In this document: positions 1-46,174 of the stretch, piece by piece | Position numbering within the stretch: the stretch's first letter is position 1 | How the letters are laid out: every line of letters begins with the position of its first letter | Origin: Minisyncoccota bacterium | GTDB taxonomy: Bacteria > Patescibacteriota > Minisyncoccia > Phycocordibacterales > UBA918 | Length of the DNA: 64,000 nt | Assembly (NCBI GenBank): GCA_041389025.1 | Contig: JAWKSP010000002.1 | Location: 184,079 to 248,078, forward strand | Direction: 5' to 3' | Program-made: the position numbers and the translations under genes | Notes under the pieces: generated by a model | Seen by the model: only the letters and a program-made list of their open reading frames with translations | Told to the model about the DNA's origin: nothing | Databases searched by the model: none

Positions 1-39
1 AATAACGGATATATCCCCATTTACCCCCTTTTTACGTTT

Positions 40-59
40 GCTGCCGGACAGGGACTCGT
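40..59. repeat. 20-nt exact copy of the 3' end of tRNA-Gln (tgctgccggacagggactcg)
   Basis: Identical to 232..251. A second fragment at 372..390 (accattagacgatccggca) duplicates the tRNA 5' end at 286..304. Confidence 0.5.
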
Positions 60-233
60 CCTGACGGTCACCAAGCTATTTTGTTTCCTTTCAGTCACAA
101 AAGTAGCTGGTGCCGCGGGACACGGCTCGCTCATAAATATCGCTCCGCCGTTCGAGTCCTGACGCAAGTGACGAAGGTCACTTGCTTCCGGCAGCACGAG
201 AAAAAGCGCACATAGGCGCTTTTAACTCTCGTG

Positions 234-5259: not shown

Positions 5260-5302
5260 TATTTTTATTTAATTATTAGCCAATAAAATAAGAGTTGTTA
5301 CT

Positions 5303-5902
5303 TTATAATTTTTCTATATATAAAAAGTTACATCCATTTTCAAACCAAGGTAGACCTTTTGGTACAAGATCATCTGGACACTTTACAACATTAACAAAAA
5401 CATCACATTTAGCAATACGTTTTATATCATAGTCAGACAGTTCACCAGAAGGGTCTATAACTCCTACCGACGCACCTACATTGATTTTTTTTAGAATAAC
5501 TTCAACAGCAGGTTTAACATGCGCTAAAGCAAAATCTTTACCTTCTAAATTAGATTTTTCAGGACCTACCTCATACACAACCTTATCAATTTTCTTAAAA
5601 AGACTAACTTCTAAATTTTTCCAGTTATCATTTACTATTTCGGCGTTGGAAATTTCATTTTCTGCTCTTTCACACAACTCTCTATTTAACTCTACAATTA
5701 CATGCACCTTTGGTTTAATGTCAGCTATGGCTTTAGCGGACAAACCTAAACCGTACCCAATTTCTAGAACCTTATCTGATTTTCGAATAAATCTCTTAAT
5801 AAAAAATTCTTGTAACTCCTTTTCAGATAAAGCAACAAGAGGTTCTTCACCAGCATATAGAATATCGTTTTTCATTTCTGTTTTGACGTATTTAAATTTC
5901 AT
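5303..5902 (-). CDS. hypothetical protein with a methyltransferase-like GxGxG segment
   Basis: VLEIGYGLGLSAKAI resembles SAM-MTase motif I; the rest is unassigned. Confidence 0.3.
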   Translation of the reverse strand: MKFKYVKTEMKNDILYAGEEPLVALSEKELQEFFIKRFIRKSDKVLEIGYGLGLSAKAIADIKPKVHVIVELNRELCERAENEISNAEIVNDNWKNLEVSLFKKIDKVVYEVGPEKSNLEGKDFALAHVKPAVEVILKKINVGASVGVIDPSGELSDYDIKRIAKCDVFVNVVKCPDDLVPKGLPWFENGCNFLYIEKL

Positions 5903-5935: not shown

Positions 5936-6955
5936 TTATATAGTCAAAAAATTTTCCACTATTTCTCCAACTGTCTCTGGATCATTCTGTTCCATTAATC
6001 TAGTTCTTAACTCATGCGCTCCAGCAAAATCTTTTACATAAGCTTTGTAGTGTTTTTTCATGATAGAAAAGTTTTTGAAAGGCAGGAGTTCGGCAAATAA
6101 TTCTGAGTGTTCTACCATCACTCGTAGTTTTTCTTCTATAGGCACATTATTAGCATCTTTTTCCGGATGAAAAAGCCAAGGGTTACCGAAGATCGCTCGC
6201 CCAAGCATTACTCCGTCGGCGCCGGAAAGCGAAGCTTTCCGGCGCGCATCCTCAAGTGACCAAGCATCTCCGTTCCCTACAATCAATGTTTTAGTGTCTT
6301 CCCCACTTTGTATTTCATCTCTGATTTCAACCGCACGCTTAATACGCTCCCAACGAGCCGGCACCTTACTCATTTCATTACGAGTTCGTCCATGGATGAT
6401 AATTGTAGCTGGCTTTTCGGTAAGTAAAATTGGTAACCATTCTTCTAATTGGTCTTGATTATACCCAAGACGAGTTTTTACCGACACCGGAACGCCGTCT
6501 TCTTCACCCATTTTTGCTCCCCGTTTTGCTGCTTGAATCACCTTTAAGGCTGATTCTGGATTCCGCATCATCGCAGAACCACATCCTTGCTTTTCGATGG
6601 ACCGATCCGGACAGCCCATATTGATATCCACCCCATCAAAACCAAGCTCGAGACAGAGCCTAGCCGCTGCTTCCATATGTTCTTCATTGGCAGAAAAAAG
6701 CTGAGCCACAATTGGTCGTTCAGCTTCTGTATAAATAAGATCGGCCATTAATTTCTTTTTTCCCTCTGAAGTGGCTCTCGCCAACCCATCAGCCGACACA
6801 AACTCAGTAAAAGTCACATCTGGACCACCGATAGTACCGTCAACTCTAGTATGCGCACTATACTTAGCGATTATACGGCGAAAAGGCGCGTCGGTGACAT
6901 CTGCCATCGGCGCTAATACAAAAAAAGGTTTTGGTAACTTTTCCCAGAAGTTCAT
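5936..6955 (-). CDS. dus: tRNA-dihydrouridine synthase
   Basis: LAPMADVTDAPFRR N-terminal signature; TIM-barrel Dus family. Confidence 0.8.
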   Translation of the reverse strand: MNFWEKLPKPFFVLAPMADVTDAPFRRIIAKYSAHTRVDGTIGGPDVTFTEFVSADGLARATSEGKKKLMADLIYTEAERPIVAQLFSANEEHMEAAARLCLELGFDGVDINMGCPDRSIEKQGCGSAMMRNPESALKVIQAAKRGAKMGEEDGVPVSVKTRLGYNQDQLEEWLPILLTEKPATIIIHGRTRNEMSKVPARWERIKRAVEIRDEIQSGEDTKTLIVGNGDAWSLEDARRKASLSGADGVMLGRAIFGNPWLFHPEKDANNVPIEEKLRVMVEHSELFAELLPFKNFSIMKKHYKAYVKDFAGAHELRTRLMEQNDPETVGEIVENFLTI

Positions 6956-43200: not shown

Positions 43201-43272
43201 GTCCTGGTGGCGAAGTGGTAACGCTGCGGTCTGCAAAACCGCCATGCGCGGGTTCGATTCCCGCCCAGGACT
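43201..43272 (+). tRNA. tRNA-Cys (anticodon GCA)
   Basis: Acceptor GTCCTGG/CCAGGAC, anticodon loop CTGCAAA, T-arm GCGGGTTCGATTCCCGC. Confidence 0.75.
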
Positions 43273-43322
43273 CACGGAGGAAAATTACACTTTCAGTGTA
43301 ATTTTCCTCCGTGAGTCCTGGG
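43264..43322. repeat. 27-bp perfect inverted repeat whose left arm is the 3' end of tRNA-Cys
   Basis: cccaggactcacggaggaaaattacac-tttca-gtgtaattttcctccgtgagtcctggg. Confidence 0.6.
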
Positions 43323-43329
43323 AGCAAAG

Positions 43330-43480
43330 TATTTTAATACTTTGCGTCGGGAATCGAAAAGCGAACGATCTGAGTCGCTTCTTCCTAAAGCGACGAAGCA
43401 GTGAGCTGTGGTCAAGCGAGTGAAATATTTTCATGTTTTAGAACATGAAAATATCCACGAGAGTGACCGATTCCTTTCCA
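43330..43480. repeat. diverged repeat R1 (related to 43808..43945), ending in a tRNA-3'-end-like segment
   Basis: Shared blocks cgggaatcgaaaagcg / cgggaattgaaaagcg, gagtcgct / gagtcgact, gtgaccgattcc / gtgaccaattcc; internal hairpins. Confidence 0.4.
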
Positions 43481-43675
43481 GCAAAACTCGAAACACTAAG
43501 TAACAACATACTCGACAGTATATTCGTTATCTATTGTAAGATTTAGTGGAGTTATTACATACCAACGTGGTGTAATCAGTAGATCACACTGTCCTAGAGA
43601 CATTCCTATAGGGACTTAAAGAAAGTCCCGTGACTAATTATATTATTTAGAGTAGGATTCAAAAAAAATATTAAT

Positions 43676-43765
43676 GCCGAGGTGGTGGAATCGGTAGACA
43701 CGAAGGACTTAAAATCCTTTGCCTATTTATACGGCGTGCGGGTTCAATTCCCGCCCTCGGCACCA
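43676..43765 (+). tRNA. tRNA-Leu (anticodon TAA)
   Basis: Acceptor GCCGAGG/CCTCGGC, anticodon loop CTTAAAA, long variable arm, encoded CCA. Confidence 0.75.
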
Positions 43766-43807: not shown

Positions 43808-43945
43808 GTAGTCAGAATGACGGGAATTGAAAAGCGTAATTTTAATTCGAATACTTGGAGTATTAAAATAGCTGGGGTCGAGGAGCTTAGTACTTTTTGG
43901 AGTCGACTAAGACGAACAAAAATACTTAGCGAGGTGACCAATTCC
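43808..43945. repeat. diverged repeat R2, ending in ccaattcccgcccttagcac (near-copy of the tRNA-Leu-TAA 3' end)
   Basis: The 3' end matches 43745..43763 (caattcccgccctcggcac) at about 17/19 positions. Confidence 0.45.
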
Positions 43946-44371
43946 CGCCCTTAGCACAAAAAAACAACGAGTCTACTTTGGTTGGACTCGTTGTTTGTAT
44001 TCTAAAGCTAGAATTTAGTGTAATGATATAATCTTTTCCGACAATACTCGCAGTCACTGATGGTAAGTTTGGTAGACCAATCCAAACCATAGTCACCGTC
44101 TGATTTATATAATCCAAGAAAACATAAAGCTCTTCGAGAAAGTAAAATAGACAACATACCCCGTATCTTCAAAAATAAGTTAGTTAATATTCCTTTAATA
44201 TTCATCAGATATGTTCCTCCATAAAGATAAAAACAACATTATACCCAGTAAACAATATAAAACTTTTTACTTTGAAGGACAACCTCATCGCCGTTAAATT
44301 TAAATCATCTAAATAAACAATTTTACGGCTTGTTTTTGACTACAAACTATTGTAAACTCATCGACACACAC

Positions 44372-44444
44372 CCACCCTTAGCTCAGTTGGTAGAGCAGCT
44401 CCCTCTTAAGGAGACGGTCCAAGGTTCGAGCCCTTGAGGGTGGA
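44372..44444 (+). tRNA. tRNA-Lys (anticodon CTT)
   Basis: Acceptor CCACCCT/AGGGTGG, D-arm GCTCAGTTGGTAGAGC, anticodon loop CTCTTAA, T-arm CAAGGTTCGAGCCCTTG. Confidence 0.6.
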
Positions 44445-44556
44445 CGCGAGTAAAACAAACTTCTCACTTTAAAAAGACAAGGAAGTTTGTTTTAATTTCG
44501 CGTCCGAGGCGTAACGATGTATTCTGCTCTACCTAGGCAGAAAACAGTAGAAGTGG

Positions 44557-45347: not shown

Positions 45348-45376
45348 TTAGACAAATATCCTTTTTATGCTATACT
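45348..45376 (+). promoter_or_regulatory. sigma-70-like promoter TTAGAC-17-TATACT upstream of tRNA-Leu-TAG
   Basis: Hexamers and spacing read from the sequence. Confidence 0.4.
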
Positions 45377-45394: not shown

Positions 45395-45476
45395 GCGCGG
45401 GTGGCGAAATTGGTAGACGCGTTAGTCTTAGGAACTAATAGAGCAATCTGTGGAGGTTCAAGTCCTCTCCCGCGCA
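45395..45476 (+). tRNA. tRNA-Leu (anticodon TAG)
   Basis: Acceptor GCGCGGG/CCCGCGC, anticodon loop CTTAGGA, long variable arm. Confidence 0.75.
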
Positions 45477-45703
45477 CTAGTATAAAAATCAGCTTGACGA
45501 TTAGTCGGGCGATTTTTGTTAGTGCGCGGGAAGAAAGCAAACTACTTTGCTTTCGTGAGGGCTTGAAGACCGGAACGATGCCGCAGGCAAGTGAGGTGGG
45601 GTCGAGAAAATTTTGCTTTGCAAAATTATTCGTGACCAAGTCCTCTCCCGCGCACTAATATAAGAAATCAGTTCGACGAATAATCGGGTTTTTAATTTTA
45701 CTT
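45461..45703. repeat. direct repeat of the tRNA-Leu-TAG 3' end plus about 40 nt of downstream sequence (copy 1 at 45461..45517, copy 2 at 45639..45703)
   Basis: agtcctctcccgcgcacta(g/a)tataa(a/g)aatcag(c/t)t(t/c)gacga(t/a)ta(g/a)tcggg...ttttt, about 85% identity; a second acceptor-like gcgcggg lies at about 45524. Confidence 0.55.
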
Positions 45704-46174
45704 AAACCACCTCTCCCGCAACCAAGAAAGAACTCTTTTCATCTCATCTTCATTTAATTTCTCTCTCTTATCAGAATCAATATTGTTTTCTAGTGATTTA
45801 TTTAAAGCAGGATACCAACCTCCGGGACTTTCAAAATCCCCTTCAACACGCGGAATTATATGTAGATGCAAGTGCAAAACCGTCTGTCCCGCCGACTTAC
45901 CGTCTTGAATCGTCCAATCAAAACCGGTAGCTTTAAATTCTTTTACAATAAAATTGGTAACTTTTCTGGAAAAAGAAAAGAAATACTGGACTTGCGTTTC
46001 CGACAAATCATTTAGCGAGGTATGTTTCTGCTTCGGTAGGACAAGCACATGCCCGGGCACAATAGGAGCAATATTGTAGATAGCCAGACAATCATCTGAT
46101 TCTACAAACACACTATGTGTTACATCAAAATTCCCAAATCTATAATTTTTATCATTCATGTTACTTGCCACCAA
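45698..46174 (-). CDS. HIT-family (histidine triad) nucleotide hydrolase
   Basis: HLHLHIIPR histidine-triad motif. Confidence 0.8.
   Translation of the reverse strand: MVASNMNDKNYRFGNFDVTHSVFVESDDCLAIYNIAPIVPGHVLVLPKQKHTSLNDLSETQVQYFFSFSRKVTNFIVKEFKATGFDWTIQDGKSAGQTVLHLHLHIIPRVEGDFESPGGWYPALNKSLENNIDSDKREKLNEDEMKRVLSWLRERWFK

Follow-up and report, generated by a model that had tools for sequence, protein, structure and literature searches.

The direct repeat at the tRNA-Leu(TAG) gene represents one member of an abundant family of folded non-coding elements, so far observed solely in CPR (Patescibacteria) bacteria and, judged against Rfam and the literature, apparently undescribed. Units are laid out in the order tRNA, terminator, S′, an optional hairpin P0, the conserved hairpins P2 and P3 that form the core, S and a second terminator. 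S′ repeats in antisense the last ~20–25 nt of the neighboring tRNA, from the T loop through the discriminator, together with a few nucleotides of trailer. S repeats this 3′ end in sense and brings a trailer and terminator of its own. When the tRNA-sense strand folds, S′ and S form a helix that closes a three- or four-way junction. Units measure 110–180 nt, with cores of 75–120 nt. With moderate confidence, we regard them as structured non-coding elements 3′ of tRNA genes whose S and S′ are personalized to the tRNA and which probably act as RNA and are probably maintained by templated copying; the most likely candidate is a tRNA-trailer RNA that would be kept matched to its own tRNA in this way.

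Within the window, by which we mean the whole 64-kb stretch of DNA analyzed, both ARAGORN and Rfam (RF00005, 58.3 bits) called tRNA-Leu(TAG) as an intact gene with no encoded CCA. The 18-mer CAAGTCCTCTCCCGCGCA, which spans T-loop C56 to the discriminator A73 of this tRNA, occurs exactly twice in the window against zero occurrences expected from shuffles. The two exact copies are separated by 159 nt of non-coding DNA, and the repeat copies lie 178 nt apart from start to start; the 163 bp given in the initial annotation holds as the distance from the tRNA end to the second copy. A gapped alignment of 45459–45517 with 45637–45693 yielded 51 identical columns out of 56 aligned, with two small gaps, which bears out the direct repetition of the tRNA 3′ end and its trailer; identity is slightly higher than the roughly 85% over about 57 nt first read, and the repeat starts two bases earlier. 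As had been noted, both copies end in a T-run, which in each is preceded by a hairpin, and the direct repeat resolves into the tRNA’s own S plus terminator and the unit’s S plus terminator. The heptamer GCGCGGG does recur between the copies (45524–45530, inside S′), but it is the antisense of the 3′ strand and not, as had been read, the tRNA’s 5′ acceptor strand. The absence of D and anticodon arms from the interval was borne out: ARAGORN and the Rfam covariance-model search called a tRNA only at 45395–45477 and nothing at 45518–45657. This interval folds at −68.9 kcal/mol (z = −7.8), far beyond chance. The locus is neither a decayed tRNA, a prophage scar nor an intron; it is a member of a conserved family, and its parts are collected in Table 1.

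Table 1 Parts of the tRNA-Leu(TAG) locus and the other family units of the window.
Feature	Position	Strand	Details
σ70-like promoter of tRNA-Leu(TAG)	45349..45376	+	TAGACA, 16-nt spacer, TG-extended TATACT
tRNA-Leu(TAG)	45395..45477	+	ARAGORN; Rfam RF00005
S1, repeat copy 1	45459..45476	+	T-loop C56 to discriminator A73; repeat runs on via trailer to 45517
Trailer and intrinsic terminator T1	45478..45517	+	Stem-loop 45492–45510 between A tract and T tract
S′	45518..45531	+	GTTAGTGCGCGGGA; antisense of acceptor 3′ strand, discriminator and 5 trailer nt; inverted repeats
P0, 9-bp hairpin	45533..45554	+	GAAAGCAAA / TTTGCTTTC, loop CTAC, then GT junction
P1 5′ strand and AA junction	45557..45567	+	GAGGGCTTG; reverse complement of T-loop/T-stem 3′ strand
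P2 hairpin	45568..45597	+	ACC/GGT base pairs, GGA/GA internal loop, covarying inner stem
P3 hairpin	45600..45637	+	GGTCG...GTGACC base, invariant G.U pair, bulged A, covarying distal stem
S2	45637..45654	+	Exact second CAAGTCCTCTCCCGCGCA; makes P1 3′ strand and acceptor-like 3′ strand
Second trailer and terminator T2	45655..45693	+	End 5 nt short of the stop codon of the convergent HIT gene
Second family unit	43811..43959	+	3′ of tRNA-Leu(TAA) 43676–43765; 38.6 bits, E = 2e-8
Third family unit	43338..43488	+	3′ of tRNA-Cys 43201–43273; 19.8 bits, E = 0.003
Fourth family unit	38..171	-	3′ of tRNA-Gln 304–233, minus strand; 31.8 bits, E = 1.5e-6

A family model, R1, which combines the P1/P2/P3 junction, the conserved GGA/GA loop, the GGTCG...GTGACC base and a location 3′ of the copied tRNA, identified four units in the window and 117 matches in 527 kb of metagenome loci. 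The tRNA-Leu(TAG) unit matched over the full model length (73.2 bits, E = 5e-18), and four of the eight tRNA genes of the window have a unit behind them. At tRNA-Leu(TAA), P1 and S are rewritten to fit that tRNA’s TTCAATT loop; the tRNA-Gln unit retains S′, P0 and P1 and copies S exactly (GAGTCCCTGTCCGGCAGC), and the tRNA-Cys unit retains S′ (AGTCCTGG), P0 and P1 with a decayed S copy. At tRNA-Leu(TAG), the complementarity of S′ reaches 5 nt beyond the discriminator, into the trailer. The promoter in Table 1, whose sequence is conserved at locus L001, is the sole promoter-like site upstream of the whole tRNA-plus-unit module. Neighboring genes in the window encode a GDSL lipase, a HIT protein, a trehalase, a rhodanese and a TrmB-type regulator, with no integrase amongst them.

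Outside the window, a gapped search pattern that left out the T stem and acceptor retrieved more than 120 metagenome stretches, and a junction pattern retrieved nine CPR genome loci, to which L001 adds a tenth; both patterns were derived from the tRNA-Leu(TAG) locus, so that sampling falls short of the family’s full diversity and host range. Across loci, the unit anchor lay a median of 144 nt from the tRNA end. A good intrinsic terminator separates tRNA and unit in most loci, including tRNA-Leu(TAG), whereas compact variants start 0–25 nt past the tRNA and lack such a terminator. The sequences at the unit ends are ...NTYGAA and GTGACC-CAAGTCC..., and a large share of the tRNA genes in related contigs also carry a unit behind them. 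Rfam searches of the window region at E ≤ 10 and of six other loci at E ≤ 0.1 returned only tRNAs and chance miRNA-like hairpins; the family is absent from Rfam 15, and a literature search found no description of tRNA-trailing units. An assembly artefact is ruled out by the many independent assemblies and by compensatory variation.

One conserved core is fitted to many tRNAs. The same core stands behind Leu, Val, Asp, Ala, Ser, His, Gln, Cys and Gly tRNAs, and 11 tRNA species carry units in the pattern-selected set. In 60 of 91 units, which span 48 distinct 3′ ends, S agreed with the resident tRNA at all 11 positions compared; cross-tRNA controls never reached 11. A model-independent count gave the same picture, with a downstream copy of a tRNA’s own 3′ end behind 125 of 297 tRNAs vs 2 in the upstream control. 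At all eight informative positions where the acceptor stem of the resident tRNA has a G.U pair, S′ carries the Watson-Crick base, which identifies S′ as an antisense copy of the 3′ strand and not a copy of the tRNA 5′ half; this test relies on other family members, the acceptor stem of the window tRNA-Leu having no G.U. Both S and S′ track whichever tRNA stands upstream. In tRNA-Ala units G3.U70 is replaced by A-U, and this loss, together with a helix that passes the discriminator, disfavors an aminoacylatable tRNA mimic. A retro-copy of mature tRNA is rejected, because at genes that do not encode CCA it is the gene trailer, not CCA, that comes after S.

The fold itself is supported by covariation and is strand-specific. 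RNAalifold placed compensatory changes in 13 of 18 predicted pairs, and P0, a module of the full-length class of units, is conserved and covaries across 82 units, as do P2 and P3. In counts of the named structure, 79.9% and 86.7% of cells were paired, compared with 35–44% when partners were slid, and covariation scores of 0.40 and 0.44 stood against 0.15–0.16 for shuffled data, and none of 500 shuffles attained them. The T stem and P1 covary, and the T-loop bases are paired within P1. Of 83 cores, 82 were more stable as the sense strand (mean difference −7.3 kcal/mol, p = 3e-15), and with DNA energy parameters all 83 folded better in that orientation. P3 holds an invariant G.U pair across the family; at all but two positions of the MAFFT alignment, G.U pairs do not clearly outnumber A.C mismatches. 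Within the single window tested, units sit on both DNA strands of one replichore, always co-oriented with the tRNA.

The units turn over. Arrays grow beside the tRNA and distal copies decay, with cases of turnover and exchange in the comparisons of L009 with L015 and of L034 with L097, and tandem arrays stand at L010, L093, L080 and L095. Proximal and distal terminators can be unrelated (L009, L001). The core of the window tRNA-Leu(TAA) unit is ~96% identical to that of the Leu(TAG) unit at L001, whereas the tRNA-specific flanks differ. This pattern of frequent decay, tandem arraying and replacement is more reminiscent of a selfish element than of a function that the host maintains.

In the explanation that we favor, the folded molecule would be RNA, made together with the tRNA; the strand asymmetry of the fold and the co-orientation of units with tRNAs on both DNA strands lend this indirect support. 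Compact variants have no intervening terminator, and at other loci the unit would arise when transcription reads through the first one; with a T1-like terminator in between and no separate promoter found for the window unit, its expression would need such read-through. Matching of S and S′ may be kept by copying from the local template, through gene conversion with the tRNA 3′ end together with palindrome correction around the terminator, and cores may be exchanged amongst loci by ectopic conversion. The minimum-free-energy fold of the read-through RNA (z = −8.6) joins S1 to S′ and the 5′ acceptor strand of the tRNA to S2. The tRNA 5′ strands, S1, S′ and S2 would thus make up an a-a′-a-a′ set with two alternative pairings, by which the unit could serve as a tRNA-specific strand-exchange or decoy module on precursors. 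It is possible, and we offer this tentatively, that personalized trailer RNAs are new tRNA-specific RNA devices, capable of programmed strand exchange with precursor or damaged tRNA and of hairpin-templated, protein-independent rewriting; such a device might supply a spare T-loop-to-3′-end segment, or trap and redirect read-through precursors. Were this device reading true, its sequence programmability would be of a kind that is not known from non-coding RNA families. As RNA, the units would form an abundant structured class tied to tRNA biogenesis or quality control in CPR, a major and poorly understood portion of the bacterial tree whose genomes are tiny and streamlined, yet in which units trail many tRNA genes. 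Whether RNA or DNA is the acting molecule, one conserved core re-fitted to many tRNAs poses a directly testable mechanistic puzzle.

Structural parallels are found in RNAs built on an acceptor plus T-arm helix, such as the tRNA-like domain of tmRNA, YrlA Y RNAs, viral tRNA-like structures and mascRNA. The units share with them a coaxial acceptor-plus-T-stem helix in which non-tRNA domains replace the other arms, and full-length units are cloverleaf-like, built of an acceptor helix, a single hairpin and a lengthened T helix. They differ in that the T loop is abolished and its bases pair with a new 5′ strand, that the acceptor helix enters the trailer, so that no free NCCA end is predicted, and that the helix is personalized to the neighboring tRNA; no Rfam entry matched, and neither ARAGORN nor Rfam called a tmRNA at the window unit. 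E. coli 3′ETS-leuZ, a short unstructured sponge of one operon, shares the origin predicted here for the units, as non-coding RNA from the trailer of a tRNA transcript, whereas the units are a large structured family with built-in sense and antisense copies of the tRNA end.

The alternative that survives best, although we consider it rather unlikely, places the unit at the DNA level, as a miniature mobile cassette of S, terminator, S′ and core, non-autonomous and served by an enzyme encoded elsewhere. Such a cassette would insert by site-specific or short-homology recombination in the T-loop-to-3′-end segment of a tRNA, displacing the old 3′ end and supplying a replacement tRNA 3′ end and terminator. 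If so, it would be a very small mobile unit aimed at tRNA genes, lacking any dedicated enzyme in its vicinity. Much of the turnover fits this picture: new modules lie beside the tRNA and older distal ones decay (L009/L015, L034/L097, L001), the arrays are in tandem, proximal and distal terminators can be unrelated, and near-identical cores occur at different tRNAs of related genomes. The classic att signature is moreover a directly repeated tRNA 3′ end, and on this point the att duplication proposed in the initial annotation stands. Against its excised element, 90 of 91 unit loci are without a nearby recombinase, and within 4 kb no recombinase, transposase or reverse transcriptase recurs in the 91 loci. 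A search for a recurrent protein partner, in which 957 ORFs from these loci were clustered, recovered housekeeping synteny only (at most 12 of 91 loci per family; RluA-type pseudouridine synthase, L19, RbfA, IF-2, ParB and MiaA). A circular intermediate of 150–180 bp would be unusually small, and a double-stranded att arm is not expected to show hairpin covariation or strand asymmetry.

Comparison with known tRNA-targeting elements bears on the same alternative. Partial tRNA duplications at att sites (P4-type islands, tycheposons, tRNA-Val serine-recombinase islands) present the same 3′-end direct repeat with the intact tRNA proximal, and copies likewise accumulate serially with the distal ones decaying. 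Between the repeats of a unit, however, lies only a terminator hairpin, with neither recombinase nor cargo; the distal repeat adjoins a covarying two-hairpin core and an antisense copy of the target, and one core stands behind at least 11 tRNA species. Two tRNA-Val loci, L044 and L139, do have a serine-recombinase island between tRNA and unit. Each island ends at its own degenerate tRNA copy, a pseudo-tRNA arm that is different and unstructured, and similarity between the islands stops at the end of this arm, upstream of an ordinary terminator and unit; the conserved sequence beside the distal repeat is thus no part of the integrated element. The islands are separate insertions beside pre-existing units, and no other integrase islands were found. 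The L044 recombinase has no homologue at the other unit-bearing loci, and six homologue contexts show a family that integrates directly behind tRNA-Val or tRNA-Gly and carries a degenerate tRNA arm of its own. We therefore rejected this large serine recombinase as the mobilizing enzyme. An IMG/VR scan found the unit scaffold, or an excised or free form of it, on no viral contig, and a scan with the tRNA 3′ end as a candidate phage attP gave two chance matches inside coding sequence. MITEs and REP/BIME extragenic palindromes resemble the units in being short, multi-copy, hairpin-rich and intergenic, in their frequent position at gene ends and in their turnover. The terminal inverted repeats of the units, however, vary by locus and equal the adjacent tRNA 3′ end (48 sequences), the units have no fixed-length target-site duplication, and their surroundings yielded neither RAYT nor any other transposase. 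For annotation, the tRNA-end repeats made by units mimic att sites and could pass for prophage or island boundaries.

We judge it improbable that the unit is instead a folded single-stranded DNA site, comparable to integron attC or CTX-phage attP and used by a host recombinase or the replication machinery. Here the S′/S duplex would mimic the 3′ end of the tRNA gene, with P2 and P3 as structural caps, during replication or DNA uptake. Integron attC and CTX-phage attP are folded single-strand recombination sites, and attC core sites consist of R″/L″ and L′/R′ (RYYYAAC ... GTTRRRY) and occur with IntI or cassette ORFs. The units share with them inverted copies of a target flanking a variable structured spacer, a strand-specific fold that persists under DNA parameters, and cassette-like tandem arrays; structure is conserved above sequence, and no transcription signal is dedicated to the unit. 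Their arms, in contrast, copy a tRNA gene end and not dif or attI; they have no attC-type R″/R′ motifs, no associated integrase or HUH enzyme and no Rfam match. A single-stranded DNA site also sits poorly with orientation, which follows the tRNA on both replication strands of one replichore, with compact variants, which lie within the tRNA transcription unit, and with viral contigs, which show no excised or free form.

It is very unlikely that an intron-like or self-cleaving RNA interrupts the T loop of a tRNA here, which would require removal of the intervening ~180 nt. The initial annotation’s suggestion of an interrupted tRNA was apt insofar as the core occupies the T-loop position of a tRNA-like helix, and three further observations are consistent with it: the distal S is the partner of the tRNA 5′ acceptor strand in the minimum-free-energy read-through fold, the unit at L017 is joined to a tRNA-like 5′ portion with no separate intact tRNA, and tRNA introns are abundant in Patescibacteria (PMC13011429). 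Nearly all units, including that of the window, are nevertheless preceded by an intact tRNA with its own terminator, and the known Patescibacteria tRNA introns lie at position 35/36 of the anticodon loop, not in the T loop (PMC13011429). There is no recognizable catalytic core. At permissive thresholds no Rfam intron family matched, the group I intron model included (E ≤ 10 in the window, E ≤ 0.1 at six other loci), nor did hammerhead, hairpin, twister, pistol or hatchet ribozymes. LAGLIDADG endonucleases sit upstream of tRNAs and match what is known of anticodon-loop group I introns; we rejected them as part of the unit.

Least credible is an ordinary pseudogene, a tandem tRNA-Leu(TAG) duplicate stripped of its D and anticodon arms by random decay: the gutted duplicate first proposed was right about the acceptor-stem and T-stem sequences, which are kept and duplicated together with trailer and terminator, and L017 has its tRNA-like 5′ portion, but the D and anticodon arms and the T loop are replaced by the conserved, covarying modules P0, P2 and P3 with compensatory evolution at more than 100 loci and many tRNAs, S′ is antisense-derived with complementarity reaching the trailer, and covariation and cross-tRNA conservation of the core refute decay as a sufficient explanation.

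The 3' end of tRNA-Leu(TAG) recurs downstream of its gene as part of a structured element, and this feature is a member of a widespread family of such elements that shadow tRNA genes in CPR bacteria (Patescibacteria). The 18-nt sequence CAAGTCCTCTCCCGCGCA, which runs from T-loop C56 to the discriminator, has two exact copies in the 64-kb window, starting at 45459 and 45637, and none in shuffled sequence. With trailer and terminator included, the repeat (45459-45517 versus 45637-45693) is identical at 51 of 56 aligned columns, confirming the duplication described in the initial annotation with slightly corrected coordinates. GCGCGGG also recurs between the copies as reported, at 45524-45530; its sequence matches a 5' acceptor strand, but its origin is different, as it belongs to an antisense copy of the 3' end. 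ARAGORN and the Rfam covariance models found no tRNA or other known RNA in the interval 45518-45662, which folds at −68.9 kcal/mol (z = −7.8).

Features of the tRNA-Leu(TAG) locus and the other units detected in the window
Feature	Window position	Strand	Called by
tRNA-Leu(TAG)	45395-45477		ARAGORN + Rfam
Sigma-70-like promoter of tRNA-Leu(TAG)	45349-45376		
Intrinsic terminator of tRNA-Leu(TAG), followed by a T tract	45492-45510		
Unit after tRNA-Leu(TAA)	43811-43959	+	
Unit after tRNA-Cys, S copy decayed	43338-43488	+	
Unit after tRNA-Gln	38-171	−	

These units share one order: the tRNA with S (C56 to N73) at its 3' end, its trailer and terminator, an antisense copy S', a core, S again, and a second trailer and terminator. 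S' is the antisense of S plus a few trailer nucleotides, and often makes a long, perfect palindrome whose centre is the terminator loop. Many units, the window unit among them, form a class in which S' leads into an A, then P0 (a 9-bp hairpin looped by CTGC or CTAC), then GT; shorter classes lack P0 or the acceptor part of S', or directly follow the tRNA CCA with no intervening terminator. The 5' strand of P1 (NTYGAA) is complementary to the T stem and T loop, P2 carries a GGA/GA internal loop, and P3 combines a base of GGTCG...GTGACC with a bulged A and an invariant G.U pair. The minimum-free-energy fold of the window's own unit is the family consensus fold. Where tRNA genes elsewhere encode CCA, it is also present in the S copy; in this genome, tRNA-Leu(TAA) (43676-43765) has an encoded CCA end and tRNA-Leu(TAG) (45395-45477) does not.

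Two observations identify S' as an antisense copy of the 3' end. At acceptor-stem G.U pairs, S' has A rather than G in all eight informative cases, including G3.U70 of three tRNA-Ala genes, and the complementarity of the window S' continues 5 nt beyond the discriminator into the trailer. On both counts, S' does not derive from the 5' half of a duplicated tRNA. It is also unlikely that the unit is a chargeable tRNA mimic.

We searched one genome per species for exact matches to the junction query GACC-AAGTCCTCTCCCGCGCA, recovering nine more loci, all in CPR MAGs and all either 65-330 nt 3' of tRNA-Leu(TAG) or tRNA-Leu(GAG) or at a contig edge. A gapped pattern that leaves out the T stem and acceptor, CTTGAA..GGGGTCG..GTGACCAAGTCC, returned more than 120 metagenome stretches among the matches listed, with the scaffold preceded by tRNA-Leu(TAG, GAG, CAG, CAA, TAA), Val(TAC, GAC), Asp, Ala, Ser or His. 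The nucleotides 3' of AAGTCC copy whichever tRNA lies upstream: they are identical to their own tRNA at 11/11 positions in 60 of 91 units, covering 48 distinct tRNA 3' ends, a level never reached in the control against other tRNAs. R1, a covariance model built from 39 compact units, detected four units in the window, after tRNA-Leu(TAG), tRNA-Leu(TAA), tRNA-Cys and tRNA-Gln, and 117 hits across 527 kb of metagenome loci; tRNA-Gly and tRNA-Arg are also followed by units it detected elsewhere. Counted without any model, 125 of 297 tRNA genes have their own 13-nt 3' end copied within 450 nt downstream, compared with 2 in the upstream control.

At locus L017 (oriented 1195-1375; about 6626-6806 of the locus, minus strand), the genome-derived unit with the highest score (88 bits) has no separate, intact tRNA in front of it; instead GCGCGGG, a segment resembling a D arm and a degenerate body lead without a break into the unit, just after the L19 gene. 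This is either a tRNA-Leu whose T loop contains the core or the product of tRNA decay. At L016 (oriented 5280-5400), a unit-like element 3' of tRNA-Lys(CTT) follows the same logic with different P2/P3 sequences (CCGCCTA, a hairpin, GTCTAGGGCTCGAAGCC and on to GGTCGAGTCCCTAAGTAGGTGCA), which suggests further sub-families outside the reach of R1.

Several measures indicate that the fold is under selection. RNAalifold found compensatory double changes at 13 of 18 predicted pairs. Cells of the named structures were paired in 79.9% (82 units) and 86.7% (39 units) of cases, against 35-44% when pairing partners were displaced by 1-3 columns, and covariation scores of 0.40 and 0.44 exceeded shuffled values (0.15-0.16; observed values reached by 0/500 shuffles). 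Covariation links P1 to the resident tRNA's T stem (first variable pair: AU 33, GC 25, GU 8), and P0 covaries as well (e.g., GAAAGCAAA/TTTGCTTTC, GTAATGTGC/GCACATTAC, AGGAGACAT/ATGTCTCCT). In 82 of 83 cores the sense strand was the more stable of the two (mean difference −7.3 kcal/mol, p = 3e-15).

Measured against the defining tests, the unit does not qualify as a tRNA, tandem-duplicate pseudogene or tmRNA, a group I intron or known small ribozyme, or an integron attC or MITE. Rfam 15 contains no family matching the unit, and we found no description of such units in the literature searched; a 2026 survey of Patescibacteria tRNA introns, located at anticodon-loop position 35/36, does not mention them (PMC13011429). 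The interpretations offered initially, a gutted tRNA, an att-site duplication or an interrupted tRNA, gain partial support only. Of the features that define att duplications, the unit shares only the direct repeat. The window locus adjoins genes for a GDSL lipase, a HIT protein, trehalase and rhodanese, with no integrase among its neighbours. Around units generally we found no recurrent gene family beyond housekeeping synteny, and no viral contigs carry the scaffold.

At one locus, L044, 5.4 kb separate tRNA-Val from its unit and encode a large serine recombinase abutting the tRNA. No homologue was found in other unit-bearing loci; its wider family (347 homologues at E <= 1e-40, ~600 aa, CPR-wide) adjoins the 3' end of tRNA-Val or tRNA-Gly in 6/6 contexts examined. 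L139 has the same layout, and its island similarity to L044 stops at ...GATGGCTCAC, where a degenerate tRNA-Val copy carried by the element ends; the ordinary trailer, terminator, S', core and S that follow are particular to each locus. The islands were therefore inserted between the tRNA and a pre-existing unit, and the true att arm at both loci is unstructured and pseudo-tRNA-like. These islands (L044 7303-12640; L139; L138, L140-L143) span 5-7 kb and terminate in a degenerate, element-borne copy covering the 3' two-thirds of the tRNA, which places the apparent integration point immediately behind the discriminator. Separately, LAGLIDADG_3 homing-endonuclease ORFs lie just 5' of, or within, tRNA genes at five loci (L077, L094, L090, L014, L015), 0.3-1.2 kb upstream of units; at L077 and L094 the cognate tRNA-Asp-like gene has no ARAGORN call. 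These features fit the position-35/36 group I introns of Patescibacteria tRNA-Asp and tRNA-Asn (PMC13011429).

A Candidatus Paceibacterota MAG encodes a HIT protein identical to the window's, and relatives of this protein come from CPR bacteria. In the closest available relative, L001 (HIT 73% identical), an identical tRNA-Leu(TAG) has its 3' end copied twice more downstream, and the blocks GAGGRCTTGAA, GGGGTCGAG and GTGACC, common to the window interval, lie upstream of the first. The core of the window Leu(TAA) unit is about 96% identical to that of the L001 Leu(TAG) unit, with P1 and S rewritten to match each tRNA's T loop and stems. At L015 the order is tRNA, terminator X, unit, Y; in its relative L009, Z and then a new unit follow the tRNA, with X and then a decayed unit beyond them. 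L097 carries three units, identical in their 5' parts and differing in P2/P3 by compensatory changes, where the near-identical L034 has one; tandem near-identical units also occur at L010, L093 and L080, and S is decayed in about a third of units. We conclude that cores move or convert between tRNA loci, that tRNA-specific arms are re-templated locally, and that units are continually born and lost. Elsewhere, at L010 (6612-6800, +), the last ~43 nt of a tRNA-Leu(TAA) are simply repeated downstream of the gene, in direct orientation and without the scaffold, and one or two degenerate 5' acceptor and D-arm copies lie upstream of tRNA-Lys at L009 (2480-2640, +) and L015 (oriented 6500-6600).

Alongside the observed architecture, covariation, strand specificity and tRNA matching, we consider it somewhat probable that the unit functions as an RNA produced together with the tRNA, since compact variants sit within the tRNA transcription unit, no separate promoter was found for the window unit, and units are always oriented as their tRNA. 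A mini-cassette mobilised in trans at the DNA level, which predicts excision junctions, is a distinctly less likely explanation. A folded single-strand DNA site is less likely still; it predicts replication-strand bias, and in the window, where GC skew of the + strand is negative throughout, three units lie on + and one on −, each co-oriented with its tRNA, weakly suggesting that orientation follows transcription rather than replication.

For an RNA made with the tRNA, the most stable predicted fold of the window read-through transcript (−124 kcal/mol, z = −8.6) contains a single long hairpin through the terminator, in which S' pairs with the S of the tRNA itself, and the distal S pairs with the tRNA 5' acceptor strand. 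An alternative pairing would leave an intact tRNA beside a closed unit. With both pairings available, the four segments would form an a-a'-a-a' set capable of strand exchange, for which the trailer complementarity could provide a toehold. Such exchange may serve the rescue, trapping or marking of read-through precursors, or the element's own propagation. At the tRNA-Lys(CTT) trailer (44441-44506, +), where R1 found no unit and Rfam gives a spurious 'mir-787', a long A/T-flanked palindrome has arms reaching the tRNA's last 3 nt, and may represent the S, terminator, S' palindrome early in its formation.
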